DNA of 64,000 bases from Candidatus Omnitrophota bacterium (GCA_030649895.1 JAUSEX010000037.1:3815-67814); one strand, 5' to 3'. Counted from the stretch's first letter, positions 32,008 to 60,682 are shown. The notes: generated from the letters alone by a model not told the origin. Program-made: numbers and translations.

Positions 32008-32040
32008 TGTATAGTAGGATGTCCCCGGATAGGACGTCCC
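32008..32040 (-). repeat. REP-like element copy (reverse orientation) with 5' GTAG, just upstream of the HExxH gene's probable start
   Basis: tgtataGTAGgatgtccccggataggacgtccc. Near-identical to 33891-33922. Confidence 0.6.
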
Positions 32041-32042
32041 AT

Positions 32043-33179
32043 ATGCATAGTCCTAGGCCTATTCTAAAGTTTATCTCTATTCTTATTGTTTTTATCTTTA
32101 ACTTTGAAAGTGTGGGACATTGCTTGCGGGTGCCGATGGTAATTAATGAAGATAGGTTTAGAAAAGCTGAAAGCGATGTTGCGGGGAAAACAATAAAAAT
32201 AAAATATCAAAGCATTAATGATGTTGTCTTGCAAGAGGTTAAAGAAGGCGAAGCAGGCTTTGAATTAGCAATGCAAGTTAGATATCATGCATATGATTCA
32301 ATGGGGAAAGTTGAAAATGATTTACGAGAACAGTTAATTAGAAATAACTGGTGGCTTAAAGCTATGTGGACACAAAAAGGATTGCCAAAGGAGCAGATTT
32401 CTATAACTATAAATGGACATATAATTGATGCTTACAATTGGAATAATGAAAGATTATCAGAAGAACAAATATCTCAGATAAGAGATGTCTTAAGTAAGTT
32501 TGCAATAATTGCAGGCGGGATTGCTTTGAAAAGAGTTCGCTATATTCTTATTGATAATCTAAGGGAGATAAATCCAAAATCTAGAGAAGAAATAAATGGT
32601 CGTGGAACGGGTCATGATCAGGTGATTTGGCTATATTTAAGAGCCATTCGTCCTATTTCTCACCGCGTGGAAGGAGCTACGAATCTTGAAGGAACATTGA
32701 TTCATGAACTGTCTCACAGTCTTACGTATATTATAGAGATTGATTGGGCAAAAAAATTTGGATGGAGACGCTTAGGAAGCCCTAATAAAATATTTCTAGA
32801 TGGCTCATATAGTATGTGGCAATTAGAAATTCCTGCACGCGCTGTAACTACGTATGCTGGAGAGTTTGATCCAGGGGAAGATATTTGTGAGAGCATGGTA
32901 GCTGCTCTGAAAAATCCAGAAATCTTAGACAGGGAACGCCTTGATTTTTTAAGAGGAAGTTTTTTGCAACCTTTAGATGAAAGAGATAACGAAATTCATA
33001 TTTCTGTAGAAAGATTTTATAAAAATAATATAGTATTACCTGCTGTTGCATCGCCGGTTAGATTTAAGAGGCATATATTAGAGCTTGAAGAAATTCCTGT
33101 TGAGTACCAGGTTGATGAGGAGTCCCTAGCTAGTTGGTTCCCATCTTTTCAGCCAAGAGTTATTGACAACGCTATTTAA
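32043..33179 (+). CDS. HExxH-motif putative zinc metallopeptidase with N-terminal signal/anchor
   Basis: ORF 31986(TTG)-33179. I prefer the ATG at 32043 (MHSPRPILKFISILIVFIFNF... signal-like) because the REP-like element at 32008-32040 lies just upstream, as for neighbouring genes. GGAGGAG at 31973-31979 would support the 31986 TTG instead. Single HELSH motif (GTLIHELSHSL). Confidence 0.55.
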   Translation: MHSPRPILKFISILIVFIFNFESVGHCLRVPMVINEDRFRKAESDVAGKTIKIKYQSINDVVLQEVKEGEAGFELAMQVRYHAYDSMGKVENDLREQLIRNNWWLKAMWTQKGLPKEQISITINGHIIDAYNWNNERLSEEQISQIRDVLSKFAIIAGGIALKRVRYILIDNLREINPKSREEINGRGTGHDQVIWLYLRAIRPISHRVEGATNLEGTLIHELSHSLTYIIEIDWAKKFGWRRLGSPNKIFLDGSYSMWQLEIPARAVTTYAGEFDPGEDICESMVAALKNPEILDRERLDFLRGSFLQPLDERDNEIHISVERFYKNNIVLPAVASPVRFKRHILELEEIPVEYQVDEESLASWFPSFQPRVIDNAI

Positions 33180-33190
33180 ATCTATGAGAC

Positions 33191-33220
33191 GGGGGACGTC
33201 CTATAAAGGGACACCCTATA
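33191..33220 (+). repeat. REP-like element copy (forward orientation) upstream of rayT
   Basis: gggggacgtcctataaagggacaccctata. Confidence 0.6.
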
Positions 33221-33305
33221 GTTAAAAAATAATTAATTTATTTGAAAGAATTCACCCTATTTATGTGTCTATATAGTAGATACATAAAAAAAGGAGGGTG
33301 GATTT

Positions 33306-33896
33306 ATGCCAAGGGCAAAAAGGCTTGTAAGCGATGATACAGTGTTTCATATTGTACAAAGAGGCAATAATAAACAAACTATTTTTAAGGAAGATGAAGA
33401 TTTTGAAAGATTCCTATCCATAATAAGAAAATATCTATCTAAGTTTAAGGTAGAAATTTACCATTATTGCCTTATGAGAAACCATATACACATTCTATTG
33501 AAGATATTTAAAAAAGAAACATTAGCAAAGATTATGCAGGGGATTTTTCAGTCCTATAGGTTTTACTATAAGCGTAAATATGGCTATATAGGCTATCTAT
33601 ATCAAGGTAGATACAAAAGCGAATTAATCCAAGATGATAGCTATTTATCAGAGTGTGGCCGTTACATAGAAAGAAACCCTGTAAGGGCTGGTATAGTAAA
33701 AAAACCTTATGAATATAGATGGTCAAGTTGTAAGCATTATACATCTGGCCAAAAGGATGATATGGTTACAGAAAACCCACTTTATGAAAGCTTTGGTAAG
33801 ACTATAGAGGCTAGGCGCTATAGTTACGAAGAATATGTTTCTACGGCAAGGCCGTATGAGGAAATGATTGACAGGCAATTTGGGATTTATATATAG
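33306..33896 (+). CDS. rayT: IS200-like Y1 (HUH) transposase of the REP-associated (RAYT/COG1943) type
   Basis: Strong AGGAGGG RBS 8 nt upstream. Family signature is MPRAKR...FHIVQRGNNKQTIF.DEDFERFL...YHYCLMRNHIHILL (HUH = H-I-H) ... YLYQGRYKSELIQDDSYLSECGRYIERNPVRAGIV...YRWSS. Flanked by inverted REP-like elements at 33191-33220 and 33891-33922. Confidence 0.8.
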   Translation: MPRAKRLVSDDTVFHIVQRGNNKQTIFKEDEDFERFLSIIRKYLSKFKVEIYHYCLMRNHIHILLKIFKKETLAKIMQGIFQSYRFYYKRKYGYIGYLYQGRYKSELIQDDSYLSECGRYIERNPVRAGIVKKPYEYRWSSCKHYTSGQKDDMVTENPLYESFGKTIEARRYSYEEYVSTARPYEEMIDRQFGIYI

Positions 33897-33951
33897 CAGG
33901 GTGTCCCTGAATAGGACGTCCCGGATGTCGCGCGGATGTCGCGGATGTCGG
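33891..33951 (-). repeat. REP-like element copy (reverse orientation) immediately 3' of rayT, followed by 3 tandem ggatgtcgc units
   Basis: atatagcagggtgtccctgaataggacgtccc then ggatgtcgcgc-ggatgtcgc-ggatgtcgg. Forms an imperfect 8-bp hairpin GGGTGTCC...GGACGTCC. Confidence 0.6.
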
Positions 33952-33964: not shown

Positions 33965-35863
33965 ATGTTAAATTTAAAAAAAACTTTAAGCATAAAAATA
34001 ACATCATTAATTGTAGTTTTAACATTATTTGTTACGAGCTTAGCGTATTGTATAGAGCTGCCTGAAAGAAGTTATCTTAGGGTTCCTCTTTTAGGTAATT
34101 CAGATGAAGGAAGAGATAGATTAGCGAGAATAGGGACGTCTTATTCAGGGACAAATCCCGGCCAAAATATTTTTATTGGCGAAGAAAAGAAAACATTTTT
34201 AAATGTTTTAGGAGGGGCAGGAAAATCAGCTGTAATATTGCTTGCGGGTATTACTCTGCTGATTCTTCCAGCGTTAGCTGCTTGCGTACCAGAATCCAAG
34301 CCGGCGGTATCAGCGCCAACTGCTCAACTAACAGCTCAAGCAATTATTCAGCCGACTCAGACACCGAGGGCAACAGGGGCGCCATTGACTCCTACTCAGG
34401 CGGCGACTGTGAACAATCAAATAGCGATAGTAAATTGGATTAACGCTAATGTAGCTACGAATACAGGGTTACCTTTGAGTTTTAGAGTGCCTAAGAATTT
34501 TGATTGGAATAAAACGTTAGACGCGGATCATCGAATTATATTAAAGGAAGGATTGGTGCTTTATGACGCCGGGCTTGCCATGATAGTCTGGGCGAATACT
34601 AAGAATATTGCGCAAACAGATAGATTAATTAATGTTCTATGGAAAGATTCTTTAGGAGAGTTTAAAACTTTGCGGGCGTATTATGATCCTGCTGATATTC
34701 CAGGGCACCCATTTATCTACAGGGACCCTCGAGGTAATGATATCAGTCCTTTTGAACCAGGTAAGCGTGGGTATATATTCAAGATAATTAATGCAGAAGG
34801 CCATTATAGGATTACTGATCCGCTTACCGGCAAGCAGGTAACTTGGCAGCAATGGCAGCCTATTAGCGGTGAGAATAGCTGGTTTGCTAATATAGGAACG
34901 ATGCATACGTATTATAGCAAATACGGCTTAACATATAATCCTAATTCATTGGAGCTTAAATTAGCGGAAGAGGTTGCGCGGGCAGCGCTTTTATTGCAGG
35001 CTGATGATATTGGCGGCATACGCATGGCGCCTATTGGCACCTCGTCAGAAGGTGAAACCGGTAAAGACCCTCTTAAATTTAGGTTATTTTATGATGAAAT
35101 TTCCACAGAGAATAATCTTTCGGGTTATGCAGGATTGCGGATGCTTGCGCAAGTTACCGGAAAAGCAGAATATAAAAAGGCTATGTCAGGCATTGAAGCG
35201 TATTTTAAATGGGCATATGTGCCTGAGCTTGGTATTTTTGCTCAGGGCGCTCATTTTTATCCGGATAAAGGCTGGGTAAAAAATACCCTATTTGCTACGG
35301 ATGTCCAGACATGGGCAATTGATGCATTGGGACCTGATGTTATAGATGCTTGGTTTGGAGAAGGGACTGCTTACAGGATGTGGCAAAAAACAAAAGAATT
35401 AGCGGGCGTCCGCGATAGCAGCGGCAGGCTTATTGGCCTTGATTTTGCTGATTATCGCGCGATCGGGCGCCAACCTTTGAATAGCGGAGAATGGACAGGA
35501 GGGGGGATTACTGGCGTACTGGAGGCAGCAAAATTTTACGCCGTGTCTCATCCTGATTGGGCAGATGAGTTACAAAAAGATGCAGAAGCTATGCGCCTAG
35601 GCATGGAGAGCTTAAGGCTGTCAGAAGGAGACAAAACAGGGTATTCCTATTTTTCATGCGTGGTAACGCCTCGTGAATGTCCTGCAAATTACGGCTGGTA
35701 TTCTCCGCCGGAGGTGGGAAGTTTGGCGTCCACTGCATGGGCGTATTTTGTGGATACAGGATTTAATCCTTTTTTCTTTGGTGGAAAATCACCCGTGGAT
35801 CAAAAGAAGAAAACCAGCATGGCTGCGCCATTTCGCGTTACTGATATCCGAGGCGCTATTTAG
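33965..35863 (+). CDS. secreted/signal-anchored hypothetical protein (possible alpha-helical glycosidase-like fold, unassigned)
   Basis: ATG with N-terminal MLNLKKTLSIKITSLIVVLTLFVTSLAYC leader shared with the next gene. Pro/Thr/Ala-rich linker, then a W/Y-rich globular region. No family confidently recognised. Confidence 0.7.
   Translation: MLNLKKTLSIKITSLIVVLTLFVTSLAYCIELPERSYLRVPLLGNSDEGRDRLARIGTSYSGTNPGQNIFIGEEKKTFLNVLGGAGKSAVILLAGITLLILPALAACVPESKPAVSAPTAQLTAQAIIQPTQTPRATGAPLTPTQAATVNNQIAIVNWINANVATNTGLPLSFRVPKNFDWNKTLDADHRIILKEGLVLYDAGLAMIVWANTKNIAQTDRLINVLWKDSLGEFKTLRAYYDPADIPGHPFIYRDPRGNDISPFEPGKRGYIFKIINAEGHYRITDPLTGKQVTWQQWQPISGENSWFANIGTMHTYYSKYGLTYNPNSLELKLAEEVARAALLLQADDIGGIRMAPIGTSSEGETGKDPLKFRLFYDEISTENNLSGYAGLRMLAQVTGKAEYKKAMSGIEAYFKWAYVPELGIFAQGAHFYPDKGWVKNTLFATDVQTWAIDALGPDVIDAWFGEGTAYRMWQKTKELAGVRDSSGRLIGLDFADYRAIGRQPLNSGEWTGGGITGVLEAAKFYAVSHPDWADELQKDAEAMRLGMESLRLSEGDKTGYSYFSCVVTPRECPANYGWYSPPEVGSLASTAWAYFVDTGFNPFFFGGKSPVDQKKKTSMAAPFRVTDIRGAI
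33991..34128 (+). repeat. leader module A copy 1 (~138 nt; 5' coding region incl. signal peptide), ~90% identical to 35895-36032
   Basis: cataaaaataacatcattaattgtagttttaacattatttgttacRagcttagcgtattgtatagagctgcctgaaagaagttatct... shared. Confidence 0.8.
34130..34153 (+). repeat. REP-like element copy inside the 5' coding region of CDS 33965-35863
   Basis: atagggacgtcttattcagggaca equals the reverse complement of the 33899-33922 core with one mismatch. Confidence 0.5.
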
Positions 35864-35886: not shown

Positions 35887-38800
35887 ATGTTAACTATAAA
35901 AATAACATCATTAATTGTAGTTTTAACATTATTTGTTACAAGCTTAGCGTATTGTATAGAGCTGCCTGAAAGAAGTTATCTCAGGACCCCTCTTTTAGGG
36001 AATTCAGATAAAGGGAGAGTCAGGTTAGCGGATGGATTGGGGCTAATGCCTTTGAACAGCAGGGTTATTGTGGGCATGCATGAAGGCGAATTGAATCTTT
36101 ATATCGAGGGCGTTGTCTCTGAGCAGGTAAAGCAGGATTTAAGAACTCTCTTGAATGCAAATCCGTATATTATAACGTATTCAATTAAAAGCATCTTTGA
36201 TGCCGACTCATTGGAATTCGAACCCTCTGAAATAACGGGTTTAAAATTAAAGAAGATCGGAGAAGGTATATATAAACGGGTTTTTTTGATAGAGGGAATC
36301 ATAACTCGCGACGGCCGTATTTTTCATAATTATCCTTTTGTCATGAAGATAACCAAGGGAGTGGATTTTGGCGATGTCCATTTGACAGAGGCGCATATAG
36401 GAGAAACTGCAAAGGCTGCGAATGAGTTAGCGCATAGCGATCCGCCGCTTCATCCAAGATTAGGAGGAGATTGGTTTTTTAATTTTGAGAATAGGAAATT
36501 TTGGGTCTTAACCGAAGGGTATGTCAGAGGCGTCAATTCAAAGATAAAAAGCGAAAGAATCGTAGAGGATGCTATATTGGGCAATGGTGATCCTGCTGCA
36601 AGAGATAAAATATTTTTAGAAACCGAAGAGAACGCTTTTTATGCGTATATTAAGGCGTGGAAGATATGGCGGGGACAGGAGCCGGTTGATACTGAAACGC
36701 TTTCTAGATTTATTGCTGACCCAAATCTGGAAAATATCGTAGATAAAATGCTGGTAGATCTGGATCTTTTATCCAGCAGCGCTAATGCCGGCTATCTCGT
36801 AAAAATTCTCTCGGAATGGTCAGACCTGGCTGACCGAGATAAAGGCCGTGTTATCTCGCGGGCTGCTCTCCGGGCCATTGGCAGAGAAGAAGGTATGAAG
36901 TTTTTAGCCGCAGCGAAGGATCAGATCGAAAATGGCATAAGCTATAAATATATCGCAAAGGCAATAGGTAATTTTTTGGAAGAGCAGTCTAAAGCGTTTT
37001 TGGCTTATTTTTATATTTTTAACGGCGAATTTAAAAAATTTATCAGGGTAAACCCAGTAATATTTAGAGGCATAGTAATGGATTTACAAAAAAATGAGCC
37101 GCTGAGAAAAGAACAGGAGGAAGGGATTGAAAAATTTTCCAAAGCTATGGATGAAATTTTTGAGCTAAGGGAGCTATATCTCATGGAAGAAGAGTATCCT
37201 AGCATTTGCGATTCTTATGCCGCAAGAGTAACGCAGATATTAAGGGATCATGGCATTGACGCGTCGCATGAAGTTTGTCGATGGCCAGAGCTGCAGATTC
37301 TCATGAGAGCCCCAAGCTATAATCCCGAGCATTATTTTGTTTTATCAAGAATCGCAGGATATGAATTTATCATTGATATTACAGCTGATCAGTTTGAAGT
37401 AAAAGATCTGTATGGAAATCCGCAGCAGTTAGGGTTGGTAGTGATACCCCTGGAAGTCGTCAGAAATAATCCGGATAAATTCTGGATGTACAATGGAAGA
37501 TTGTCTGCTTCTTTTGTTAATGTGCCGCTGGAGGAAAGATTGGATGCAGTTGAGATGCTATCCAGCGTGTTAAGGATATATGATGATGCAAAAAAAAGAA
37601 GCCTATCTTTAATCTTATGGCCTCAAACAGGAGAAAGCGTTTGGACGCGAGATCAGGCCAGGGTTAGAGTAGAAACGTTGCTGTTAGATATGAACGGTGA
37701 GGATGTAAACATAGCGAGGCGAGCGAGACATGAATTGGCGGCATCGAGGCAAAGAGCTGTTGAACCGTTATTAGATATTTTGAAAGAAACGGATGACTGG
37801 GAGCTAATGGAGAAGATTTATAAGGCTTTATTGATCGCCTGTGATCTTGTCAGCATCAGAAAGCTTCAGGATTTATATTTTAAACTGGAAGACGAATGGA
37901 AAAAAAATTGGATTCGTATCGCTTTAGAAAAGTTGATGCAATTAGATAGTTTTATTATGACCTATTCGCCAAAAGAAGGTAATGCGATCGAAAAAACTAC
38001 TTTTAAGAATAGGCTTGAAAAAGCGGAAGAATATATTTTAGGTTTAATCAGGGCTGACCCCGGAAGGATTAAGGTGATATTGGACTGCTGCGCTTCAGAT
38101 AGCAGCACTACCCTGGATATCGCAAAAAAAACCCATGGCGAAGATGAGGGCATAAAGATTATTGGAATGGATATCAATGAGATTCTTTATGTGGTCAGTG
38201 ACGCAGGAGGCAATGTGGCTGTATTTGATTCGCTGGATAACCTGGTTAGGTTAGATACGAAAGATGGATATTGGATAAGAAATTCCGAGGGTTGGGTTAA
38301 AGACGGCTATCATTTAGTTGAAGACGGGCCGGATAAAGAGGCTGTATCCTTATATGGAAGATTAAAGGAAACCTTACAGGCGCATCTGAGAAGAAAAATT
38401 GATATTTCAAAAAATGGCGTAGAACCTGATGCGTATAGCGATGGCCAGGGCAATAGAATAGAAGCTATATATCTTGTTAACCCTGAAGCTATAGAATGGG
38501 CAATGAGCCATAATTTAGAATTTATGCAGGGAGATTTTTTTAATTTAACAAATACCGTTGCGCAAAAAAGCGTAGATATAGCTATTGTCGGCAATGTTTT
38601 GGGGGAATATTATGAATATTATAGCCAAGATTCTACTTATGAGGCGCTAAAAGAAATAGGCCTTACGCTGAAAGAGGGCGGGAGGCTTATTATAGGAAAC
38701 AATCCTTCAAGAGTGATGACGGTAGATTTTCAGTTTCTTGTCTATGAACGCAAAGGCGATAATCTGGTATTAGTAGATATTGTTGGGCAGCCGCATATAT

Positions 38801-38895
38801 GGAAAGGTGAAGAAATAAAACAGATCGCTCTTAAATCGATTGAAAAAAGAGCGATTTCTATGCCTTTTTATTCTAATACCAGAGATCAGTTGTAG
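35887..38895 (+). CDS. secreted/signal-anchored multi-domain protein: transglutaminase-like Cys-protease-like core + C-terminal class I SAM-MTase-fold module
   Basis: N-terminal 30 aa almost identical to the previous gene. SICDSYAARVTQILRDHGIDA...HYFVL...IIDITADQ resembles the transglutaminase-like Cys-His-Asp core. The C-terminus has the MTase-fold motif order (ILDCCASDSS / IIGMDIN / VDIAIVGNVL / LKEGGRLIIG), with a degenerate motif I. Confidence 0.7.
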   Translation: MLTIKITSLIVVLTLFVTSLAYCIELPERSYLRTPLLGNSDKGRVRLADGLGLMPLNSRVIVGMHEGELNLYIEGVVSEQVKQDLRTLLNANPYIITYSIKSIFDADSLEFEPSEITGLKLKKIGEGIYKRVFLIEGIITRDGRIFHNYPFVMKITKGVDFGDVHLTEAHIGETAKAANELAHSDPPLHPRLGGDWFFNFENRKFWVLTEGYVRGVNSKIKSERIVEDAILGNGDPAARDKIFLETEENAFYAYIKAWKIWRGQEPVDTETLSRFIADPNLENIVDKMLVDLDLLSSSANAGYLVKILSEWSDLADRDKGRVISRAALRAIGREEGMKFLAAAKDQIENGISYKYIAKAIGNFLEEQSKAFLAYFYIFNGEFKKFIRVNPVIFRGIVMDLQKNEPLRKEQEEGIEKFSKAMDEIFELRELYLMEEEYPSICDSYAARVTQILRDHGIDASHEVCRWPELQILMRAPSYNPEHYFVLSRIAGYEFIIDITADQFEVKDLYGNPQQLGLVVIPLEVVRNNPDKFWMYNGRLSASFVNVPLEERLDAVEMLSSVLRIYDDAKKRSLSLILWPQTGESVWTRDQARVRVETLLLDMNGEDVNIARRARHELAASRQRAVEPLLDILKETDDWELMEKIYKALLIACDLVSIRKLQDLYFKLEDEWKKNWIRIALEKLMQLDSFIMTYSPKEGNAIEKTTFKNRLEKAEEYILGLIRADPGRIKVILDCCASDSSTTLDIAKKTHGEDEGIKIIGMDINEILYVVSDAGGNVAVFDSLDNLVRLDTKDGYWIRNSEGWVKDGYHLVEDGPDKEAVSLYGRLKETLQAHLRRKIDISKNGVEPDAYSDGQGNRIEAIYLVNPEAIEWAMSHNLEFMQGDFFNLTNTVAQKSVDIAIVGNVLGEYYEYYSQDSTYEALKEIGLTLKEGGRLIIGNNPSRVMTVDFQFLVYERKGDNLVLVDIVGQPHIWKGEEIKQIALKSIEKRAISMPFYSNTRDQL
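35895..36032 (+). repeat. leader module A copy 2
   Basis: see 33991-34128. Confidence 0.8.
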
Positions 38896-38896: not shown

Positions 38897-38960
38897 GAGT
38901 TGTAGGGGGACGTTCTATTTGGAGTTGTAGGGGGACGTTCTATTTGGGGACACCCTATAC
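38897..38960 (+). repeat. two tandem 25-nt REP-like copies (AGTTGTAGGGGGACGTTCTATTTGG x2) + GGACACCCTATAC, overlapping stop codon of upstream gene; AGTTGTAG occurs 3 times
   Basis: Read directly at 38888-38960. Confidence 0.65.
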
Positions 38961-39125
38961 AAAGACAGGCTTTATGTTGAATATTAAAAAAATATTATTA
39001 ATCAGGGTAATAAGCTTATTACTTTCAATAAGCGTCGCGCTTCCAGACGCTGCCTATTCTCTATCTGAAAGCCTAAGAGTTCCATTAAATACCCCGGAAC
39101 TTAAAGAGCGGCAGGAAGAAGTTCA
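38923..39125 (+). repeat. leader module B copy 1 (REP-like motif + RBS + signal-peptide coding + LR[VA]PLNT.ELKERQEE), ~90% identical to 42680-42885
   Basis: ...tttatgttgaatattaaaaaaatattattaatcagggYaataagcttattRctttcaataagcgtcgcgcttccagRcgctgcctattctct... shared. Confidence 0.8.
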
Positions 39126-42100
39126 ACGATTTCTAACGCAGGACAAGGCAACTTCCACGCTTTTATCTCCTACGGTTTTAGTTACTGGTGGAGCAGGGTA
39201 TATTGGAAATTTTGTTGTCAGGCAGCTTCGCAGCAAAGGTTACAATGTGATTATTTATGACAGGGCTACTCGCCCGGAACTTGCATTGGAAAAGCTTAAA
39301 TATATACAAGGGGACTTGGGTGATCGCAAGCGTTTGGATGAAGTTTTTAAGGCGGAGCATGTTAATGCAGTTATCCATTTGGCTGCTTTAATTCAAGTGC
39401 CGGAATCAGTCAGGCGGCCAGCGGCTTACTATGAAAATAACTTTATTAATACGCTCGCTCTTCTAGATACTATGGCAAAGCATAGGGTAAGAAGTATTGT
39501 GTTTTCATCATCTGCCGCAGTGTATGGCGAGGGCTCTGAAGAGCTGCTGACAGAACAAACCAATGTTAATCCGGCTAATCCTTATGGTGAAACAAAATGG
39601 CTTATGGAAGAAGCTATGCGGGCCTATGAAAAACGTTATGGTATTCATTCAGTGGCGTTACGCTATTTTAATGCAGCCGGGGCAGCAATGGATGGCTCGG
39701 TTGGCGAAGCCCATCAGCCTGAAACGCATATTATTCCGAGTTTATTGGAGAAGGCGGTTAAAAAAAGAGAGAAGCTGCCTATCCGCAGAGGTTATCCTAC
39801 GCCGGACGGTACAGCGATCCGGGACTTTGTCCATGTGGAAGATTTAGCGCGAGCACATACCCTTGCATTAGACTACATAGTTCGCGAACAGCATAGCGAT
39901 ATTTTTAATCTTGGTACCGGGTCTGGGACATCAGTGCGGGAGATAGTAGAAAGCATTGAAAGGCTGACCGGGGAAGATGTCCCAATAGAGCTTTCTGCTC
40001 CGCGATCAGGAGGCGTAGCGCGGCTTGTAGCTAGTTTTACAAAGGCGCAGGCGCGTTTGGGCTGGATGCCTATATTAGGTATTGAGCAGATTCTTGAGTC
40101 TGCATTGAAATGGCATAGCAACAGGCCTATCATGACTCAGCAGCAAGGCGAAAATATTTTTATGGGCAGCCATGGCGAAGCTCAGGCATTTGAGCGCGTA
40201 ATATCACAGCTTAGGTCTAATTTTGTAATTGGTGATTCATTGCGCGAAGAAGTCATGGTTCGTCTTGCAAAAAGGATGCAGGTATTACTTAAAGAAGCGG
40301 ATCAGGCTGACGCAGAAGAGATATTGCGCGTTATATTTGCAAGTAACACGTGGCTGGTTAGCAGAGAAAAGCGCATTGTCAATGACCAGGAGTTAATGGC
40401 GCTGCTTGCAAAAAGCCTGGCTATTTCGCTGCGGCGCGAAGACGCAAAAGAAATTGCAGAATTCCTTAACGCGCTTCTGAACCATTATCCTGAAAATTTA
40501 CTGCCTGAAGCTAAGCGATTAATTCATTCATATTTAGTTGTCTATAATATCGATAGGCCATTGAAGATAGCTACTGTTGTTTCCCGCTATGGAGGCCAGA
40601 TCAGAATATTAAGGCCGGAAAATCATCCTCTTGGGGAGAATAATCTGCGGTTGAAACTAGAGCAGCTGGAAGAGCTTTACGGTATAAATACTAATGTTTA
40701 CTGGGAGTTGATTTTAGTTCAGGATGGGGACGATAGGAAGCCTGAAGATCCACTCAGGCGCCTGCGCACTATTGATATGGATAGGGATATTGTATTGGTT
40801 GAGCATCCTGATTACTTTGCTTCAGGAAGAGTGAGGCTTTATGAGCTGGATCAACAAGAGAAGCTGCGTTTAGGCAGCGTGCGTACCGGGGCTACTACTT
40901 ATGGCGCCCGCCAAGCCATAAGAAATGGCGCTGATTTTGTAGTTATTACAGATGGCGATGTATCAGCCCATATTGGACAGGAAGGACTTTTGCTTGAGCC
41001 TCAATTGAAAGGTGAAAAAATAGTTGCTGTTGGGTCACGCAGCGCTAGCGGTTCAATAGTGCGCGGCCGCAAACTTATCCGTCGTATTATAAGCCCGGGG
41101 TTTAATATTTTTTCCCGCTTGTTTTTGTCTTTGGGGCCTATCCGTGATACTCAATGTGGTTTTAAAGCTTACAGCCGTCAAGTGTTAGAAGATATTTTAC
41201 CTGTAAATAAGGATAATAGATTTGATATCGAATTTGCCTATAATTTTTCTGGCGAAGTAAATCTCCTTTGGAGGGCCAGGCTTTCCGGATATCAATTAAA
41301 AGAAATACCTATTGCCTGGTTTGATACTCCTACAACTACAGTAAAGCGCAGCGATATTATAAATATGGCCAAAGGCGTTTTAAGGCAAAGAGCTTATTTG
41401 GACAAATGGAAAAAAAGAACACCATCTGGCCAGGAGACAGAGACTATTTCTCTTCCAGGCAGCACAAAGGCGTGGGACCTTCAGTATAGAATAATGCCTA
41501 TAGAAGAAAAAATCAAAGTAGCCATGTCTAAATATGATTTAGGCGTTGCTTCTTTTGAAGATATCCGTTACGAAGAACTAAGGGGTGGAGTTCCTAACAG
41601 GCTTCCATTGAGACTGGAAACTCCTTTGGGAAATTTTGCCTTAAAACAGATTGCGCTTACATTGGAAGAGGCAAGATTTTGCGTTTCAGTGCTTCGCAGG
41701 CTTCAAAAAGAAAAGTTGCCTATCCCGGCATTAGTAAAGACTAAAGATTTTCCTGACGAGAAAACAGACAGCTATTTTATAAAAATAGGCACTTATTTTT
41801 ATATCTTGGAAGAATTTAAGGAGGGCCGATATGTTGATCGCTTACAGGCTGAGCCAGCCCATTTTTATAGCATAGGAAAGATAATGGCGGATATCCATCA
41901 TATTCTTGCTGGCTTTACACCGGAGGGGCAGAAAACAGCTGCTCCTGTAATAGATATCTTACGGCATAGGCGCGAGTTTCAGCAGCTAAGGGGAAGATTA
42001 AGAAACAGGGAAACTTTACAATTAAAAGCAGGAGAAATTTTATTTTTATATTTATATGAAGAAATTATGCAGCAGTTCGATATTTTAGAGAATAATCTTT

Positions 42101-42666
42101 CCGAATCAATTTACAATAGTTTGCCCAGAGTTGTTGTCCATGGAGACGCTTCTTTTCCAAATATATTATTTTCTGATACGGGAGAAGTTGTTGCTTTGCT
42201 TGACTGGGAACGGTCCAGGATTCAGCCGCGCGTAGAAGATTTTAAGAATACTATAATGACGGTTGATCCGATACAGGGCCGCACCTATGATTTTGACAGC
42301 TTGGTAGAACTGGTAGCTGCTTATCAGGCACATACTGCTGATAAGCTTACAGAGGCAGAATTGCGGGCTATACCCGAAGTTTTAAGGGCAACGTTTCTCT
42401 GGGAATTCGCTTCTCGTTTTATGTCTAGGATTTCAGAATTGGAACAAAAAGAAGGAATGGACAGGCTTGACAATATGCTTTTAAAGTTTCAGAGTTTTAA
42501 AAAAGATTTCCCTGGTACAAATGAGAGTATTCAAAGATTTATAAAGGAAGTAAACTCAAAAAGCCGAGAAATATTAATAGGCCCTGCTGAATCCCAGGAG
42601 CCTGTCTTTGAGATAAAGAGGGCGCTTGAAGAAGATGGATCGCCTGTTTTGCGTAATCAGATTTAA
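38974..42666 (+). CDS. signal-peptide-bearing tri-domain fusion: NAD-dependent sugar epimerase (GalE-like) + family-2 glycosyltransferase (DPM1-like) + APH/choline-kinase-like phosphotransferase
   Basis: ATG at 38974 (ORF-track TTG 38944 overlaps the repeat element). Signal peptide MLNIKKILLIRVISLLLSISVALPDAAYS. Epimerase: VLVTGGAGYIGNFVV (Rossmann GxxGxxG) ... YGETKW (YxxxK) ... matches GalE. GT2: LVQDGDD ... FVVITDGD ... DTQCGFKAYSRQ. Kinase: VVVHGDASFPNILF ... LLDWERS. Confidence 0.8.
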   Translation: MLNIKKILLIRVISLLLSISVALPDAAYSLSESLRVPLNTPELKERQEEVQRFLTQDKATSTLLSPTVLVTGGAGYIGNFVVRQLRSKGYNVIIYDRATRPELALEKLKYIQGDLGDRKRLDEVFKAEHVNAVIHLAALIQVPESVRRPAAYYENNFINTLALLDTMAKHRVRSIVFSSSAAVYGEGSEELLTEQTNVNPANPYGETKWLMEEAMRAYEKRYGIHSVALRYFNAAGAAMDGSVGEAHQPETHIIPSLLEKAVKKREKLPIRRGYPTPDGTAIRDFVHVEDLARAHTLALDYIVREQHSDIFNLGTGSGTSVREIVESIERLTGEDVPIELSAPRSGGVARLVASFTKAQARLGWMPILGIEQILESALKWHSNRPIMTQQQGENIFMGSHGEAQAFERVISQLRSNFVIGDSLREEVMVRLAKRMQVLLKEADQADAEEILRVIFASNTWLVSREKRIVNDQELMALLAKSLAISLRREDAKEIAEFLNALLNHYPENLLPEAKRLIHSYLVVYNIDRPLKIATVVSRYGGQIRILRPENHPLGENNLRLKLEQLEELYGINTNVYWELILVQDGDDRKPEDPLRRLRTIDMDRDIVLVEHPDYFASGRVRLYELDQQEKLRLGSVRTGATTYGARQAIRNGADFVVITDGDVSAHIGQEGLLLEPQLKGEKIVAVGSRSASGSIVRGRKLIRRIISPGFNIFSRLFLSLGPIRDTQCGFKAYSRQVLEDILPVNKDNRFDIEFAYNFSGEVNLLWRARLSGYQLKEIPIAWFDTPTTTVKRSDIINMAKGVLRQRAYLDKWKKRTPSGQETETISLPGSTKAWDLQYRIMPIEEKIKVAMSKYDLGVASFEDIRYEELRGGVPNRLPLRLETPLGNFALKQIALTLEEARFCVSVLRRLQKEKLPIPALVKTKDFPDEKTDSYFIKIGTYFYILEEFKEGRYVDRLQAEPAHFYSIGKIMADIHHILAGFTPEGQKTAAPVIDILRHRREFQQLRGRLRNRETLQLKAGEILFLYLYEEIMQQFDILENNLSESIYNSLPRVVVHGDASFPNILFSDTGEVVALLDWERSRIQPRVEDFKNTIMTVDPIQGRTYDFDSLVELVAAYQAHTADKLTEAELRAIPEVLRATFLWEFASRFMSRISELEQKEGMDRLDNMLLKFQSFKKDFPGTNESIQRFIKEVNSKSREILIGPAESQEPVFEIKRALEEDGSPVLRNQI

Positions 42667-42679
42667 AAAAAGCAAAGGA

Positions 42680-42711
42680 CTAGGGACGTTCTATTCGGGG
42701 ACACCCCATAC
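42680..42711 (+). repeat. REP-like element copy upstream of CDS 42725
   Basis: ctagggacgttctattcggggacaccccatac. Confidence 0.6.
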
Positions 42712-42885
42712 AAAGAGAGGTTTTATGTTGAATATTAAAAAAATATTATTAATCAGGGCAATAAGCTTATTGCTTTCAATAAGCGTCGCGCTTCCAGGCG
42801 CTGCCTATTCTCTGCCTGAAAACCGCTCTAATGCCTTAAGAGCTCCATTAAATACGCTGGAACTTAAGGAGCGGCAGGAAGAAGC
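42680..42885 (+). repeat. leader module B copy 2
   Basis: see 38923-39125. Confidence 0.8.
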
Positions 42886-45800
42886 TTTAAAGGCGATAAT
42901 ATCTCCTATAGGTGCGTATTTGGAAGCCGATGAAATGACAGTTGGTGATGAAGCGGAATTAGGCAAAACACCTGCTGATCAAAGAAATGATGCCAATATT
43001 GCCAAAGGCGAGGGAATATTTGCTCCGGACGAACACGCTGAAGCAAATACTATAATAAGACAGGCAAGAAGAGAGAGGCGGGGATATATCATCAGAAGGA
43101 ATAAAACTACGATTTCCAGGGGCTGGAAAGAAGGTAAAGATGAGGATAAGGCTAAACTTAATAAGGCTATTGATTTATTGCTGGATGGGCATATGGGTAA
43201 GTTTAAGAGCATAGCTTTGCCAAAGGGACTGGGCGAAATTAACTTATCCGACAGGCTCCATATCCCAAATATTATATTGATTCAACCGAGAAATAGATCT
43301 CCCGGCCTAATTGTAAAAGATAGAAATGCCTTCCAGGTTGCCCACGCAGGAGTAGCCTATAATTCTATTTATATTGATAAGATTACTTTTGATCATCTCA
43401 ATATTGAAGAATTGGCCGCTTTAGTTCTTCATGAGATAATAGAGATAAAAGCAAAGAGCTTGACCTTGGAGAAAGGCGTAACTTGGACTGAACTGGCAAT
43501 GGATGTTCATCAACTGGCTGAGAGATACGAGATAGATGTTGCAGGGCCCAGCCTAAGCGGCGTTGGCAGTAGGTTGGATGATAAAGTAAGAGAGGTTTTG
43601 CAAAGTGCTTTTGCATTCAGGATTCAAAGCTTGATCGAGCCTTACGTTAGCCAGCTACAGCCTCTTATTGATAGATATCATCAGGCAAGTGATAAAAAGG
43701 ATAGAGAAGAAATAGAAAAAGAAATTAATAAAATAGTAAACAAAATCAATGTCTTCTCCGTGGTTCCAGAAGATCAGATTGTTCTGGCCGAGGACGAAGA
43801 TATAGAAGCTTTAGATAAGTTCTTAAAGAGAAAGCGCGCCAAAGAGCATATAAAGTTTGCAGAAGATACAATTATTCAAGGCAGGTATATCCCGGAATTT
43901 TTCTTTGCTGGCGCAGCTACTCGCCTCATCGAAGACCTTAAGGGGTTGGGCATAAAGATAGAGGATAGAGATGAATACAAGTATCGTATGTATTCTTTGG
44001 ATCCCTGGGATTTTGCCGGGCCGGCCAGAGCGGCTTCCTTAAATTTAAATTTAGGAATGGGCCAGAGGCAGCTTTTTGCCTATAGAGCCTTCTTAGAGAA
44101 ATTGGCTAAAGAAAGAGGCTTAAACCCGCGTGATGTTATAAAGAGGCAGCGTCTTATCCTGCACGTAAGCGCAGAGATAGCGGATGAAGTTCAGGAAGAT
44201 TTCTTAGCTAGCAACCTTTTGGGTTTTGACCCTCAATATGGTTTTGATCTTCAGAACGTCTTCTTTATTATGCAGGAGAATTTACCCGGTTATCTTCTTA
44301 AAGATGGCCAGGTAAATTTAGCTCAAGATAGCAAAAAACTTCCATTTGGGCATGGCTATGCGACAATGCAGGTAAACATACCTTCCGTAGCTTTTCGCCT
44401 TATAGCAAGGGACAACAAGGTATATCGAGAATATCTATCAGAGGATATATTGACTGAGCTGGAAGGCGAGGGCGCAGACTGCTTTGTTGGCACACATAGG
44501 GTTAATGACTTAACTAAATTTCTGGTCGATGGGGTAGTAGATATACAAAAGCTAGCTTTTAGCATATATCTTATTAAGAAAGGTAATGATCTTGTTGTAG
44601 AGCTGGTTGAGAATCCCATGGACCAAGAAGGCAAGAGACAGAAAGGAGGAAATCTTATTAAAGATAGAAGGACCAATAGAAAGTTTTTGATCGAAACTTC
44701 TAATACAAGCGGTTCAGTTAAATTGGATGAGATGTTAACTAAAGCCAGTCAAGAAGGCGCCCCCTATAATGCCTTTCGTCTTACATATGGATTGAGGCCT
44801 TTAAAGAAATTATTAAGGAAAGATTTATCTTACAATTTGAGGTTTAAGAATGGTTATTTCTATTTGGAGGCGGTTACTGGAGATTTAACTCAACTGGAAG
44901 ATGTAAAGTCAGCGGCATTCAAGAGGAGAGGAGATGTTATCAAAGATTTTAAAAAGCTATCTAATTTGGATATTGCCACACCTATCCTTACAGAAAGTGA
45001 TAAAGCTTTAATAGGGTCGTTTGATCAATTAAAACATAGGCAAGCCTTAAGCAATGGGAAGATAACAGAATTGATATATAGATTACAAAGAGAAGGTATT
45101 CCCGCAGATTTCATAAATACTGTTATCTTATCTATGCCTCTTGAGCATACGTCAGCTGATACTGTTCCTGCGGATAGGCTCAGGGATCAAGTTATGGAGC
45201 TATACGGTTTAATGAAGCGGTATCTTGAAAACCCAGGGCAGATTCAATATTCTGTCAAGAATCCGAAAGATACTTACTATAAGGGAGTCCCTGAAGAAAA
45301 AATTCCTCAGCCGATTAATTATTCCGAAATTATGGTGGTTAGCAAAGACAGGGCCGGACTGTTAAGAGATATACAGGCTGAAATTGCTAAACTCAGAGGC
45401 AGCGGCGGTTCGCTTTATTTTTCTATCTATAAAGACACAATTTTATTGGTTTGTGAAGTGCAGCATGTTCAGAGAAAGGATGCTTTCAGCGGCCAAGAAA
45501 TAAAGATGCTGGAGTTAGCGCTCTCGCAGATAAAGGTGGAAGAGAAAATGCCTCTCATTAGGCCTGAGTATCGCTTTGACGATTGGGGTGAGGACGAAAG
45601 GCATGATAATGTTTACGAGGGCGAGGTAATTGTCGATAGCAGGGTTTTAAATTTACGGGTGGAGAAGTACGAAGATGGCTTTAAGTATTTTCTTACTTAT
45701 AAAGGCGAAGGCGTTGGATATGGTAGGATTTTATTTGGGACAGGCAAGTTTGAAATCCATTATTTAGAGACCCAAGACTGGTTTAGAAAAAAGGTCGCCG

Positions 45801-46426
45801 ATATTTCTATAGCTAAACTATTAATGAATATCATGATTAAAGATTTATTGCTGATAGGAAATCAGAATCTATCGGGTTTAACTGTTCGCATGGTTATGGG
45901 AATGCCTGGTACGATTCCAAGGGTAAATAATCTTATCGGGGATTTTGGGATAACCGATTTTGATAAAGATGCTGTAAGAGATATGATAATGGACAGAGAA
46001 TCTAAAATCGCTATCAGCGAAACAGAACCCCCGAAGCAAGGCGTACCATATTTTGAGATAAGATTAGACAATAGATTTTCGCTGAAGATTTTTCTCAAGG
46101 CGCCTAAGGAATATTCATATAAAGATAAGAGAACATGGATCATTAACAGGCAAATTTACGAGCAAATGAAGTCAGAATATACAGTTCGGATCGCCCCGGA
46201 TAGATGGCTGCAGGATAAGCTTAAGGAAGAATTAGTAAGGAGGCTTGAAGAGGACGAGATTTTTGTGGGAGGGGTTGATTATTATGTTGATCCTGATAAG
46301 GTTGAGGGGCTAGAAAGTTATGCTATACTATTGCCGATCAACCCTTGGTCAATAAATGCAAACTATGATACTCAGAAAAAACCAGGCCGATTTTTAGGCC
46401 GGAAGAAGATAGATTCCGCGTTATAA
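42725..46426 (+). CDS. secreted multi-domain protein, free-standing paralogue of giant-ORF module 21680-25140 (UDPGP-like nucleotidyltransferase + ACT-like + unknown regions)
   Basis: ATG at 42725 preferred over ORF-track start 42626, which overlaps the upstream gene and the repeat element. Leader MLNIKKILLIRAISLLLSISVALPGAAYS is near-identical to the previous gene. EFFFAGAATRL ... NVFFIMQENLPG ... LPFGHGYAT ... EIMVVSKDRAGLLRDIQAEIA (ACT-like). Confidence 0.8.
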   Translation: MLNIKKILLIRAISLLLSISVALPGAAYSLPENRSNALRAPLNTLELKERQEEALKAIISPIGAYLEADEMTVGDEAELGKTPADQRNDANIAKGEGIFAPDEHAEANTIIRQARRERRGYIIRRNKTTISRGWKEGKDEDKAKLNKAIDLLLDGHMGKFKSIALPKGLGEINLSDRLHIPNIILIQPRNRSPGLIVKDRNAFQVAHAGVAYNSIYIDKITFDHLNIEELAALVLHEIIEIKAKSLTLEKGVTWTELAMDVHQLAERYEIDVAGPSLSGVGSRLDDKVREVLQSAFAFRIQSLIEPYVSQLQPLIDRYHQASDKKDREEIEKEINKIVNKINVFSVVPEDQIVLAEDEDIEALDKFLKRKRAKEHIKFAEDTIIQGRYIPEFFFAGAATRLIEDLKGLGIKIEDRDEYKYRMYSLDPWDFAGPARAASLNLNLGMGQRQLFAYRAFLEKLAKERGLNPRDVIKRQRLILHVSAEIADEVQEDFLASNLLGFDPQYGFDLQNVFFIMQENLPGYLLKDGQVNLAQDSKKLPFGHGYATMQVNIPSVAFRLIARDNKVYREYLSEDILTELEGEGADCFVGTHRVNDLTKFLVDGVVDIQKLAFSIYLIKKGNDLVVELVENPMDQEGKRQKGGNLIKDRRTNRKFLIETSNTSGSVKLDEMLTKASQEGAPYNAFRLTYGLRPLKKLLRKDLSYNLRFKNGYFYLEAVTGDLTQLEDVKSAAFKRRGDVIKDFKKLSNLDIATPILTESDKALIGSFDQLKHRQALSNGKITELIYRLQREGIPADFINTVILSMPLEHTSADTVPADRLRDQVMELYGLMKRYLENPGQIQYSVKNPKDTYYKGVPEEKIPQPINYSEIMVVSKDRAGLLRDIQAEIAKLRGSGGSLYFSIYKDTILLVCEVQHVQRKDAFSGQEIKMLELALSQIKVEEKMPLIRPEYRFDDWGEDERHDNVYEGEVIVDSRVLNLRVEKYEDGFKYFLTYKGEGVGYGRILFGTGKFEIHYLETQDWFRKKVADISIAKLLMNIMIKDLLLIGNQNLSGLTVRMVMGMPGTIPRVNNLIGDFGITDFDKDAVRDMIMDRESKIAISETEPPKQGVPYFEIRLDNRFSLKIFLKAPKEYSYKDKRTWIINRQIYEQMKSEYTVRIAPDRWLQDKLKEELVRRLEEDEIFVGGVDYYVDPDKVEGLESYAILLPINPWSINANYDTQKKPGRFLGRKKIDSAL

Positions 46427-46619: not shown

Positions 46620-47051
46620 ATGAATTTTCCAATTTTTTACACATTGTTTTTCTGGATTGCGTGGATCAGCATTATTACGATTATTTTAAAGGTTGTCCCT
46701 ATGGGGGCCGAGCTGATAACTATTTGTATATGCGCTATTTTAGGGGTTGCCCTGTATTTTTCAGCTCCTTCCATAGTAACCGAATGCCTGGAAAACCTGC
46801 GGGATAAGAAGCCAGATAAGAATAAAATGATAAGCGAGAGTAGAAAAAAATTTTTAAATGAGCAATATCTTAGAAAAAGATACAGGTATATAAAATTAAA
46901 CAAAAAAGAAAATATAATATCCAGTACTATAGATAAAAAAGATAAAATATCCCTCATGGAAGTTGTGCATGGAGATACTCCTGAATTTGCGCAGCAGTTA
47001 ATCCAGGAGTACGAAAATAAAAAAGAGGTATTTAGTTCCCGAGATTTATAA
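46620..47051 (+). CDS. small membrane protein (2 TM), K-rich C-terminus, hypothetical
   Basis: Two hydrophobic helices at the N-terminus. Extended -10 TGGTATAAT 40 nt upstream. AT-rich region, so the opposite-strand ORF 46637-46957 is also open. Weak call. Confidence 0.35.
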   Translation: MNFPIFYTLFFWIAWISIITIILKVVPMGAELITICICAILGVALYFSAPSIVTECLENLRDKKPDKNKMISESRKKFLNEQYLRKRYRYIKLNKKENIISSTIDKKDKISLMEVVHGDTPEFAQQLIQEYENKKEVFSSRDL

Positions 47052-47101: not shown

Positions 47102-47500
47102 ATGAGGATAGATAAAGAAGAAGCGCTAAAAGCAAAGATGGATTCACTGGGGATAAAAGAAACAGACCTGGAGGAGAAATTTATACGTTCGAACAAGAAG
47201 GGCGGGCAAAAGGTCAATAAGACATCCTCGTGCGTCTACCTCAAATACAAGCCTACGGGCATAGAGGTTAAGTGCCAGGAAGAACGTTCCCAGGCCCTTA
47301 ACAGATTTCTTGCCAGAAGGATACTCGTTAATAAAATCGAATCGCTTGTCCTGGGCAAAGAAGCGGAGATAGAGAAGAGGATAGAAAAGATAAGACGCCA
47401 GAAACGAAAACGTTCCAGGAGGGCCAAGGAAAAAATGCTCAGGTATAAAAAAATGCGCTCTGAAAAAAAAGAACTGCGAAAATTTCAGGCTGAAATATAA
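47102..47500 (+). CDS. arfB: alternative ribosome-rescue factor ArfB (YaeJ/ICT1 family peptidyl-tRNA hydrolase, GGQ motif)
   Basis: KETDLEEKFIRSNKKGGQKVNKTSSCVYLKY ... QEERSQALNRFLARRIL plus a basic C-terminal tail (RRQKRKRSRRAKEK). Matches the E. coli YaeJ pattern GGQHVNKTSTAIHLRF ... QEYRSQELNRE. Confidence 0.8.
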   Translation: MRIDKEEALKAKMDSLGIKETDLEEKFIRSNKKGGQKVNKTSSCVYLKYKPTGIEVKCQEERSQALNRFLARRILVNKIESLVLGKEAEIEKRIEKIRRQKRKRSRRAKEKMLRYKKMRSEKKELRKFQAEI

Positions 47501-54305: not shown

Positions 54306-54385
54306 AGAACTGTTTCTTGTTTCGTTCCTTTCAGTGGCAAGATTCGGAATTAAATTTGCAAAGCAAATTCAAAAGGATGAAATGC

Positions 54386-56592: not shown

Positions 56593-56604
56593 TATGGGAA
56601 AATT

Positions 56605-59798: not shown

Positions 59799-59888
59799 GA
59801 AGGAGGTGTATTTTATAGAAATAAAAATAAATGTTAATCGCGCGTAGATAGCGCGGGGAAATAAAGCAGCAGAACAAAGGAGGGAAAG

Positions 59889-60605: not shown

Positions 60606-60655
60606 TGGCGTAAATACTTAGCAGAAAAACAAGGTATTCTTAGAGCGAAGCCGAA

Positions 60656-60682
60656 GGTCGAGTCGAGAGGCTCTCGACTCGA
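60656..60682. repeat. perfect 13-nt inverted repeat (gtcgagtcgagag / ctctcgactcgac) in intergenic region, flanked by cgaag / tcgctcg tandem motifs; possible terminator or regulatory hairpin
   Basis: Read directly. No U-tract. Confidence 0.4.

Follow-up and report, generated by a model that had tools for sequence, protein, structure and literature searches.

Omnitrophota are widespread, almost uncultured, ultra-small and host-dependent bacteria, and giant multi-enzyme proteins are their hallmark. In those giants that bear signal peptides or transmembrane (TM) helices, metabolic modules (PPDK, PGM, glycolytic enzymes, glycosyltransferases, methyltransferases and radical S-adenosylmethionine (SAM) domains) are predicted to lie outside the cell, a paradox that the published studies treat as unresolved (bioRxiv 10.1101/2023.11.21.568195; 10.64898/2026.06.07.730766). 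By DeepTMHMM, 48% of the long proteins of Omnitrophota are predicted to have a signal peptide (bioRxiv 10.64898/2026.06.07.730766). The neighbourhood of the giant genes has also been described and consists of the giant gene, then PilZ, a solute-binding protein and an ABC transporter, and then glycoside hydrolases (bioRxiv 10.1101/2023.11.21.568195, West-Roberts et al. 2023). Here, we analyse a stretch of 64,000 nucleotides (GCA_030649895.1, JAUSEX010000037.1:3815-67814; this whole stretch is referred to as the window) from a metagenome-assembled genome (MAG) of Candidatus Omnitrophota, a probably predatory, uncultured bacterium. We focus on five consecutive genes (32043, 33965, 35887, 38974 and 42725) that lie 3' of a giant open reading frame (ORF) and whose products begin with a stereotyped leader containing the motif LRxP.

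The window matches the published giant-gene neighbourhood. The giant ORF and the leader-bearing genes are arranged as follows.

33-31868, plus strand: 3' part of the giant ORF, >10,600 residues, with its start beyond the 5' end of the window.
32043-33179, plus strand: HExxH protein (HELSH) of 378 residues; leader at about 32043-32189, LRVP at 32124.
33965-35863, plus strand: leader-bearing protein of 632 residues; leader at 33965-34123, passenger without recognised family.
About 34196-34285, plus strand: second, lipoprotein-type signal (..ILPALAAC) inside ORF 33965, behind the leader.
35887-38895, plus strand: leader-bearing protein of 1002 residues; leader at 35887-36045, LRTP at 35980.
38974-42666, plus strand: GalE-GT2-kinase protein of 1230 residues, referred to as the tri-enzyme protein.
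38974-39141, plus strand: leader of the tri-enzyme protein; residues 1-29, MLNIKKILLIRVISLLLSISVALPDAAYS, are the predicted signal peptide, and LRVP at 39073-39084 is followed by the charged helix.
42725-46426, plus strand: leader-bearing protein of 1233 residues; leader at about 42725-42898, LRAP at 42836.

With about 19 hydrophobic segments and with GH2_C-like and Methyltransf_28 modules (Pfam), the giant ORF is predicted to encode an Archaeovorin-like multi-pass membrane protein; its Methyltransf_28 module is an NDUFAF7-like SAM methyltransferase. The leader-bearing proteins belong to the same phylum and the same locus type as the Archaeovorin-type giants, in which HEAT, glycosyltransferase, PPDK, PGM, methyltransferase, HAD and radical SAM modules stand behind signal peptides or TM helices, and they pose the same inside-or-outside paradox. 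Compared with these multi-pass giants of 10-150 thousand residues, the two focal proteins (38974-42666 and 42725-46426) are of moderate size, with 1,230 and 1,233 residues, and have one N-terminal hydrophobic segment. For Omnitrophota giants, both the locus type and the puzzle of metabolic modules on a possibly external side are already published, and the initial annotation, made from the sequence of the window, overstated its case in presenting the locus as without precedent. The apparent novelty is that this puzzle extends to mid-size, single-segment proteins beside the giant gene, that these carry a stereotyped leader, specific to the phylum and with LRxP as its invariant part, which is also placed before unrelated genes including complete precursors, and that the leader-bearing class is depleted in cysteine. 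The LRxP leader, its attachment to complete precursors and the cysteine depletion are not mentioned in bioRxiv 10.1101/2023.11.21.568195 or 10.64898/2026.06.07.730766 ('leader' and 'cysteine' occur 0 times in each), and a further literature search for the leader found nothing.

The leader is an N-terminal module of about 55 residues that comprises a lysine-rich n-region (MxxFKKxxxxK), a hydrophobic core of about 16 residues, AY[G/A/S], nine further residues, L-R-x-P and a short charged helix. The LR-anchored consensus of 83 sequences is M-l-k-F-K-K-x-l-n-x-K-I-I-S-L-i-v-a-i-x-F-f-x-x-s-t-a-Y-G-I-d-l-s-x-K-s-h-L-R-v-P-L-x-x-n-s-x-x-g-r-x-r-l. The arginine of LRxP is present in 83/83 of these leaders, the leucine in 82/83 and the proline in 77/83, and the spacing is fixed, with the start methionine exactly 37 residues before LR in 51/83. 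Counted from LR, lysine occupies position -33 in 51/83, -32 in 58/83 and -27 in 52/83 sequences (the focal proteins begin with MLNIKK..R), and the h-region from -26 to -11 contains about 16 uncharged residues, mainly I/L/V/F/A, with a KD12 of 2.5-2.9 in the window copies. The c-region is polar, N/S/T preceding a -3/-1 site that obeys the rule for signal peptidase I (SPase I): at the predicted cleavage site AY[G/A/S]|I, position -1 is G/S/A in 65/83, position -3 is A/V/T/S in 62/83 and position -2 is Tyr in 65/83 sequences. The leader thus shows the three rule-based features of a general secretory (Sec)/SPase I substrate, namely a charged n-region, a short h-region and small -3/-1 residues, and we use the term signal peptide on the basis of these rules together with family conservation. 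The n-h-c layout noted in the initial annotation is therefore real, but the classical signal peptide seen there is in fact part of an Omnitrophota-specific module with LRxP rather than an ordinary one.

All five window leaders contain the lysine-rich n-region and the hydrophobic stretch, followed by AY[S/C] or GHC and by LR[VAT]P[LM]; the start methionine, one serine in the hydrophobic core and L-R-x-P are invariant in their alignment. In a six-frame scan of the window, LR[VATI]P[LVMI] occurs six times, five of these directly behind an N-terminal hydrophobic stretch. The sixth (HELRTPL, in a histidine kinase) is the H-box of HisKA and not a leader. No twin-arginine translocation (Tat) motif is present, the leader having no RR, and TIGR01409 and PF10518 match only the second signal of family member P0156. 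The lipobox [LVI][ASTVI][GAS]C is likewise not found in the leader, where the consensus is A-Y-G-I and where a cysteine follows AY in a few members, with Tyr at -1. The type IV pilin-like (class III) motif G|F-x-x-x-E is absent from all leaders, and no Pfam or NCBIfam model spans the leader. A weak TatA match (20.8 bits, cutoff 72) to one of the five leaders reflects merely a layout of a TM segment plus an amphipathic helix. When the leaders of 33965 and P0097 are compared, 10 of the 16 identical residues are encoded by different codons, and selection therefore acts on the peptide and not on the DNA. What is conserved is a peptide, one that occupies the very N-terminus and is set before unrelated genes.

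Among 1.84 billion cluster representatives, a profile built from seven leaders recovered 81 clusters at E <= 1e-3, of which 80 match from residue 1. Every member with a source name is Candidatus Omnitrophota. P0099, with 11 internal matches, is a false positive, being an unrelated repeat protein with STLRVPANTP repeats. A word-indexed search with the leader profile gave two short proteins only, and scans of genome and metagenome contigs for subfamily-A leaders gave one locus each, from lineages already represented. The passengers behind the leader are highly diverse. The cytoplasmic-type ones comprise the GalE-GT2-kinase fusion, a B12-binding radical SAM protein with NUDIX, in which CxxxCxxC is intact, GNAT, PPDK with HEAT, PGM/PMM, a Ser/Thr kinase, MraZ and HAD with Methyltransf_28; the secreted-type ones comprise an S8 subtilase, NAGPA, ChaN-like, DUF3131 and glucoamylase-like proteins as well as HExxH proteins. 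TPR proteins and giants of 2,050-3,503 residues with further hydrophobic segments are also found, and among members of at least 300 residues 38 of 51 have no other hydrophobic segment. P0100 (DUF3131) and 33965 are alike in the leader alone, which rules out 33965 as a DUF3131 enzyme. The five window genes are thus members of an Omnitrophota-specific, polymorphic family that is defined by its N-terminus and not by its enzymes. Leader-only ORFs span 69-150 residues. One of 75 residues (P0090, L002 10001-10228) is conserved on five contigs (also L003, L004, L005 and L008) and stands upstream of a leader-bearing radical SAM/NUDIX gene; about 25 family members of <200 residues may represent fragments or remnants, or else short peptides that are secreted.

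Conserved signal-peptide regions that are restricted to a lineage and mark an exported subset for a route or site are known as YSIRK-G/S, KxYKxGKxW and the ESPR of type V secretion. The Omnitrophota leader resembles these in kind; it is unrelated in sequence and from another phylum, has its best-conserved element behind the predicted cleavage site, and precedes cytoplasmic-type passengers. The Plasmodium PEXEL (RxLxE/Q/D) and the oomycete RxLR-dEER, in which a signal peptide is followed within about 10-30 residues by a near-invariant short motif, also occur in host-dependent organisms, in protein families that are large, clustered, varied and quick to evolve. These are eukaryotic, endoplasmic reticulum-based systems without sequence relation to the leader; the likeness is one of analogy only. 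The genomic arrangement recalls the Mycoplasma vlp/vsp and Borrelia lipoprotein families, where a near-identical 5' region and leader are found on dissimilar neighbouring genes. Those are lipoprotein leaders on surface antigens, whereas the Omnitrophota leader lacks a lipobox and its passengers include multi-domain enzymes.

In the window, the leaders of 38974 and 42725 are 93% identical over 142 nt including the 5' untranslated region (UTR; 38932-39073 versus 42683-42824), in line with the initial claim that both proteins have the same leader, and those of 33965 and 35887 are 91% identical over 141 nt (33986-34126 versus 35890-36030). The proteins behind each near-identical pair are unrelated. 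A near-identical upstream region and leader on dissimilar neighbours point to recombinational spread of a leader cassette. The same cluster contains copies of a 24-nt repetitive extragenic palindromic (REP) unit, GGGACGTCCTATnnnGGGACACCC, and a REP-associated tyrosine transposase (RAYT).

33193-33922, plus strand: element with an IS200-like Y1 transposase (RAYT) at 33306-33896 (Pfam Y1_Tnp, E 6e-15), flanked by inverted REPs.
32017-32040, 33193-33216, 33899-33922, 38932-38955 and 42683-42706: REP copies, all inside the leader-gene cluster.
34124-34153, plus strand: degenerate REP, in frame within ORF 33965 and directly behind its leader (33965-34123).

The five copies in 64 kb, with 0 expected by chance, lie around the RAYT and, for four of the five genes, in the spacer just 5' of the leader start, and the leader of 33965 is bracketed by inverted REPs. 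This placement fits recombinational spread of a cassette made up of the 5' UTR and the leader. REPs normally pile up in intergenic spacers near their RAYT, and the association of REPs with leaders may therefore be incidental. A perfect 25-nt tandem duplication (GAGTTGTAGGGGGACGTTCTATTTG, two copies) at 38897-38946 overlaps the REP 5' of coding sequence (CDS) 38974.

Among the passengers, the tri-enzyme protein is the best defined. Both focal ORFs have the boundaries given in the initial annotation, and the first is 100% identical to P0001 (NCBI, Candidatus Omnitrophota MAG, 111-kb contig, annotated as GalE), with the same start codon. An exact look-up of the protein in assemblies gave no match, and a 7-kb Logan contig alone carries the downstream part. 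Three domains follow the leader.

39175-40128, plus strand: GalE domain, residues 68-385 (Pfam, TIGR01179, PDB).
40531-41400, plus strand: DPM1/DPMS-like GT2 domain (VQDGDD, TDGD and RDTQCGFKAY motifs).
41572-42480, plus strand: APH/CotS-like kinase domain, residues 867-1169 (HGDASFPN, DWE).

The assignments of the initial annotation (a GalE-like epimerase, a DPM1-like glycosyltransferase and an APH-like kinase) hold, that of the glycosyltransferase less firmly than the other two. Residues 68-314 match Pfam Epimerase with E 1e-58, the match to the TIGR01179 equivalog reaches 364 bits (cutoff 262), and comparison with PDB entry 8wxk (E 9e-84) shows the signature motifs to be conserved (GGAGYIG, SSSAAVYG, YGETK and RYFNAAGA). 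Judged by these matches, the domain is a bona fide UDP-glucose 4-epimerase (GalE). Between the leader and the GalE Rossmann motif there is no in-frame ATG, GTG or TTG, and GalE is therefore made solely as a leader fusion. The GT2 domain matches Pfam PF00535 only weakly (E 5e-3, 17 bits, below gathering). A profile that includes three GT2 repeats of the homologue P0002 finds a single family in the PDB, archaeal dolichol-phosphate mannose synthase (DPMS; 5mlz, E 3e-7 over about 100 residues), so that 'DPM1-like' is a fair description. P0002 itself (2,137 residues, ENA) is leaderless; its DPM1-like GT2 modules, three in tandem, are combined with HAD-like modules and with a C-terminus that resembles nucleotidyltransferases, and it shows reuse of the GT2 module in other large multi-enzyme proteins. 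The kinase domain scores 70 bits against Pfam APH (PF01636; cutoff 23), and HGDxxxxN and DWE are readable; its best NCBIfam matches, the CotS family and type II homoserine kinase, are both below cutoff. P0003, a partial protein with GalE, HEAT and kinase-like parts on a 3-kb contig named 'Methanosarcinales archaeon' (NCBI), is close to the Omnitrophica protein P0004; the contig probably derives from Omnitrophota and was assigned in error to the bin of an archaeal host or prey.

Fusions of GalE to the next enzymes of sugar pathways are known elsewhere (cyanobacterial GalE-GT2, GalE-GalK/GalT and yeast Gal10; P0005-P0011, P0018 and P0045, among others). The leader-profile search recovered none of these, and they are therefore without leader. 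They differ further from the window protein in their cysteine content, which is normal, with a median of 4 in the GalE domain versus 0 here. Across the 65 other GalE fusions, one GalE domain has no cysteine; two related Omnitrophota-type fusions have 0 and 1. The depletion extends to the entire class: the two focal proteins have 2 cysteines in about 1,230 residues each (0.16%), the giant ORF has 10 in 10,621 residues (0.09%) and the mean of the leader family is 0.45%, compared with 1.35% for GalE-fusion homologues of other organisms and 0.9-1.8% for the other window proteins, among them cytoplasmic regulators and ordinary glycosidases and binding proteins with signal peptides. Cysteine avoidance is typical of proteins that cross the outer membrane unfolded, such as RTX proteins and autotransporter passengers. 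The depletion is modest, indirect evidence that the leader class is under constraints unlike those of normal cytoplasmic enzymes. Even cysteine counts as a signature of disulfides are not robust, part of the cysteines being located in the leaders.

The interpretation that we prefer, while holding it with somewhat less than even confidence, is that the leader is a lineage-specific Sec-type export leader combined with a sorting motif, spread by recombination, and that it defines a class of proteins tied to the giant-protein apparatus. All rule-based Sec features are present, LRxP is better conserved than these, and the ordinary exported proteins of the window use ordinary signals; for these reasons an export-plus-sorting leader is favoured. 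The last point refers to the following block.

53970-61935, plus strand: PilZ, a solute-binding protein, two ABC permeases and GH2/GH72-like glycosidases (context genes).

Its exported proteins have ordinary, non-stereotyped signal peptides or lipoboxes, and the leader therefore marks a special class. That secreted-type passengers also carry the leader is in agreement with export. In this mechanism, the leader would bring the nascent protein to the Sec translocon and would be cut after AY[G/A/S], and the new LRxP-bearing N-terminus may then act as a second-step signal for sorting, processing or docking that retains the protein where the cell meets its host or prey, in association with the surface apparatus formed by the giant protein. 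Cytoplasmic-type enzymes would have been recruited into this exported arsenal. In the case of the tri-enzyme protein, GalE would supply UDP-Gal(NAc) and the DPM1-like GT2 would move the sugar onto polyprenyl phosphate, alongside a CotS/APH-like kinase, all working on nucleotide sugars and ATP derived from the host or prey and not in a normal periplasm.

Several observations speak against this interpretation. NAD, UDP-sugars, ATP, SAM and acetyl-CoA are available in the cytoplasm only. The remark in the initial annotation that cytoplasmic-type enzymes make little sense as ordinary periplasmic ones is borne out. A true GalE and a radical SAM protein with an intact CxxxCxxC carry the leader, and Sec export would deliver the latter without its Fe-S cluster. 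The assignment as a signal peptide is rule-based and has no identified cognate machinery. Furthermore, about 9-12 of 75 members, or some 15%, contain a complete second Tat, Sec or lipoprotein signal within about 110 residues behind the leader. These second signals are well formed, with K/R before a hydrophobic core and then a lipobox or AxA site, or with an SRRxFLK-type motif. The Tat type is seen in P0156 (SRRNFLK, above the TIGR01409 cutoff), P0170 (NRRKFFL), P0120 (TRRFFM) and P0168 (GRRIFLK), the Sec type in P0150 (AQA|E) and before the subtilase of P0146, and a lipobox (LAAC) in the window's own 33965. The native methionine is kept before the second signal in P0170, P0120 and P0146, where a Shine-Dalgarno-like sequence before the retained methionine of P0146 is ambiguous. 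The leader has thus come to stand before entire genes, among them genes for complete precursors. The simple form of 'leader equals export' does not predict such second signals, which would be inverted or useless behind a cleaved Sec leader; under the preferred interpretation they would be relics of recent cassette capture.

A first alternative, which we regard as unlikely although it is the main rival, accommodates the second signals. Here the leader would be a membrane tether or 'zip code' without translocation, a helix in or on the cytoplasmic membrane, with the LRxP helix docking onto a partner such as the giant protein. GalE, GT2, kinase, radical SAM, PPDK, PGM and MraZ would stay at the cytoplasmic face, where the DPM1-like GT2 would meet polyprenyl phosphate and UDP-sugar, and a passenger that has a Tat, Sec or lipoprotein signal of its own would be exported by that signal. 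Every passenger would then be located where its biochemistry requires, including the radical SAM carrier with its intact Fe-S motif, and DPMS-like GT2 enzymes normally act on the cytoplasmic face. The identifiable passengers with a second signal are of secreted type (S8 subtilase, ChaN) and the cofactor-dependent ones are without, and the second signals look functional, with N-in polarity. The charges flanking the hydrophobic segment are near balance: N-terminal to it they sum to about +3, and the 25 residues C-terminal to it contribute +1 to +2. Nevertheless, a single span with N-out/C-in topology must carry a tail of 3-4 lysines across the membrane, contrary to the positive-inside rule. The variant considered in the initial annotation, an uncleaved N-in anchor with cytoplasmic catalytic domains, is impossible, as an N-in single span puts the C-terminal bulk outside. 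A conserved -3/-1 signal-peptidase-type site and a polar c-region are likewise unexpected in a mere anchor, several secreted-type passengers are without a second signal (32043 with HExxH, P0100 with DUF3131), and the cysteine depletion is left unexplained.

Delivery into an attached prey or host cell, either to its cytoplasm or to its envelope, was put forward in the initial annotation; it goes a step beyond export and appears to us distinctly doubtful. According to this proposal, the leader would export the protein and LRxP would serve as a host-targeting signal in the manner of PEXEL/RxLR, the enzymes running on the NAD, UDP-sugars, ATP and SAM of the target cell. In a wider form that seems equally doubtful, the phylum-specific tag would define an exported 'effectorome' of predatory or episymbiotic Omnitrophota: complete cytoplasmic-type enzymes (GalE, GT2, kinases, PPDK and radical SAM) would be sent to where the two cells touch, or into the prey itself, and new effectors would arise when the leader cassette is pasted before any gene. 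The order of signal peptide, about ten residues and short invariant motif, the high diversity of the passengers and the host-dependent phylum are all consistent with it, as are the clustering beside a giant surface protein and the logic of the cofactors. Predation of Omnitrophota on archaea and bacteria has been reported (bioRxiv 10.64898/2026.06.07.730766), and the sole PDB relative of the GT2 domain is an archaeal DPMS. Delivery into another cell would also be compatible with the cysteine depletion. Against this, no delivery machinery is linked to the leader, housekeeping-type enzymes such as GalE, MraZ and PGM are odd effectors, a radical SAM cargo would need Fe-S loading inside the target cell, and the second signals are not explained; what speaks for delivery is purely analogy.

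Least likely, and in our view improbable, is a mobile or recombination cassette (5' UTR, start codon and leader) that serves expression and translation start with little or no role in localisation, or that regulates co-translationally through R-x-P: the confinement of the REP copies to the leader cluster, just upstream of four of five leader starts and with a RAYT present, the inverted REPs around the 33965 leader, the retention of the 5' UTR with the leader, the leader-only ORFs, the native starts and signals kept behind the leader and an ArfB-like ribosome-rescue gene near leader genes in two loci would suit it, but what is conserved over the 80 clusters is the peptide, which has a fixed length and residues that do not vary while synonymous sites diverge, the long fusions have been kept in frame, GalE could start nowhere else, the REP association is perhaps incidental, and LRxP, at codon ~38-41, is reached before the signal peptide could exit the ribosome tunnel, unlike in force-sensing arrest peptides. 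An arrest peptide with R-x-P as in SecM or RAPP was accordingly retained as a minor rival only, codons 38-41 being too near the N-terminus for force sensing.

Whichever of these accounts applies, the question of whether the modules of the giant proteins reside inside or outside the cell gains an experimental handle, in the form of a tag common to at least 80 protein clusters. The leader provides a testable set of proteins, 55 residues suitable for reporter fusions and an LRxP motif open to mutation, and its sequence can be used for phylogenetic profiling against candidate sorting machinery, for which about 180 complete genomes are available. Should the tagged enzymes be exported, entire nucleotide-cofactor pathways would, unusually, be at work outside the bacterial cytoplasm or in prey. 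Should they not be, the leader would only look like a signal peptide and would serve another purpose, which would call for caution in topology-based inference in this phylum.

The remaining passengers of the window are less well defined. For 42725-46426, the initial annotation had proposed a UDP-sugar-pyrophosphorylase-like (UDPGP) domain, which finds no support: there is no Pfam match even at E 5 and no NCBIfam match, sequence and profile searches of the PDB are empty, and BLASTP and hhalign comparisons with the true UDPGP region of P0040 are non-significant. The resemblance to UDPGP is at the motif level alone (FFFAGAATRL, GVGSRLDDK and LPFGHGYAT). The protein has two Omnitrophota orthologues, P0086 and P0087, with 59% identity, and its passenger belongs to no recognised family; an AlphaFold2 model from a three-sequence alignment has a pLDDT of 33, too low for use. 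In 35887-38895, the proposed transglutaminase-like and methyltransferase-like modules correspond to sub-threshold matches, to the papain/transglutaminase-like Tox-PLDMTX (E 0.011) and to Methyltransf_31 (E 4e-4, below gathering), respectively, and a HEAT-like match is also weak. The HExxH protein 32043-33179 has a weak WLM match (E 0.025, Pfam).

Directly 3' of the leader cluster, an ORF at 46620-47051 encodes a small two-segment membrane protein of 143 residues without family. It is not a conserved partner of leader genes, being unrelated to the ORF that follows the leader-bearing P0089 in L006. Further 3' are a gene with an ArfB-like RF-1 domain, CstA and a two-component/GGDEF/FIST block. 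An ArfB-like gene is found within a few kilobases of leader-family genes in two independent loci (window 47102-47500 and L009 7060-7470), which may be a coincidence. In L006 (single-amplified genome AM-311-J02, JBHPFI010000013.1), a protein of 2,462 residues (2481-9869) with a match to eukaryote-type 1,3-beta-glucan synthase (FKS, PF02364) is placed between an 8,163-residue giant gene and P0089.

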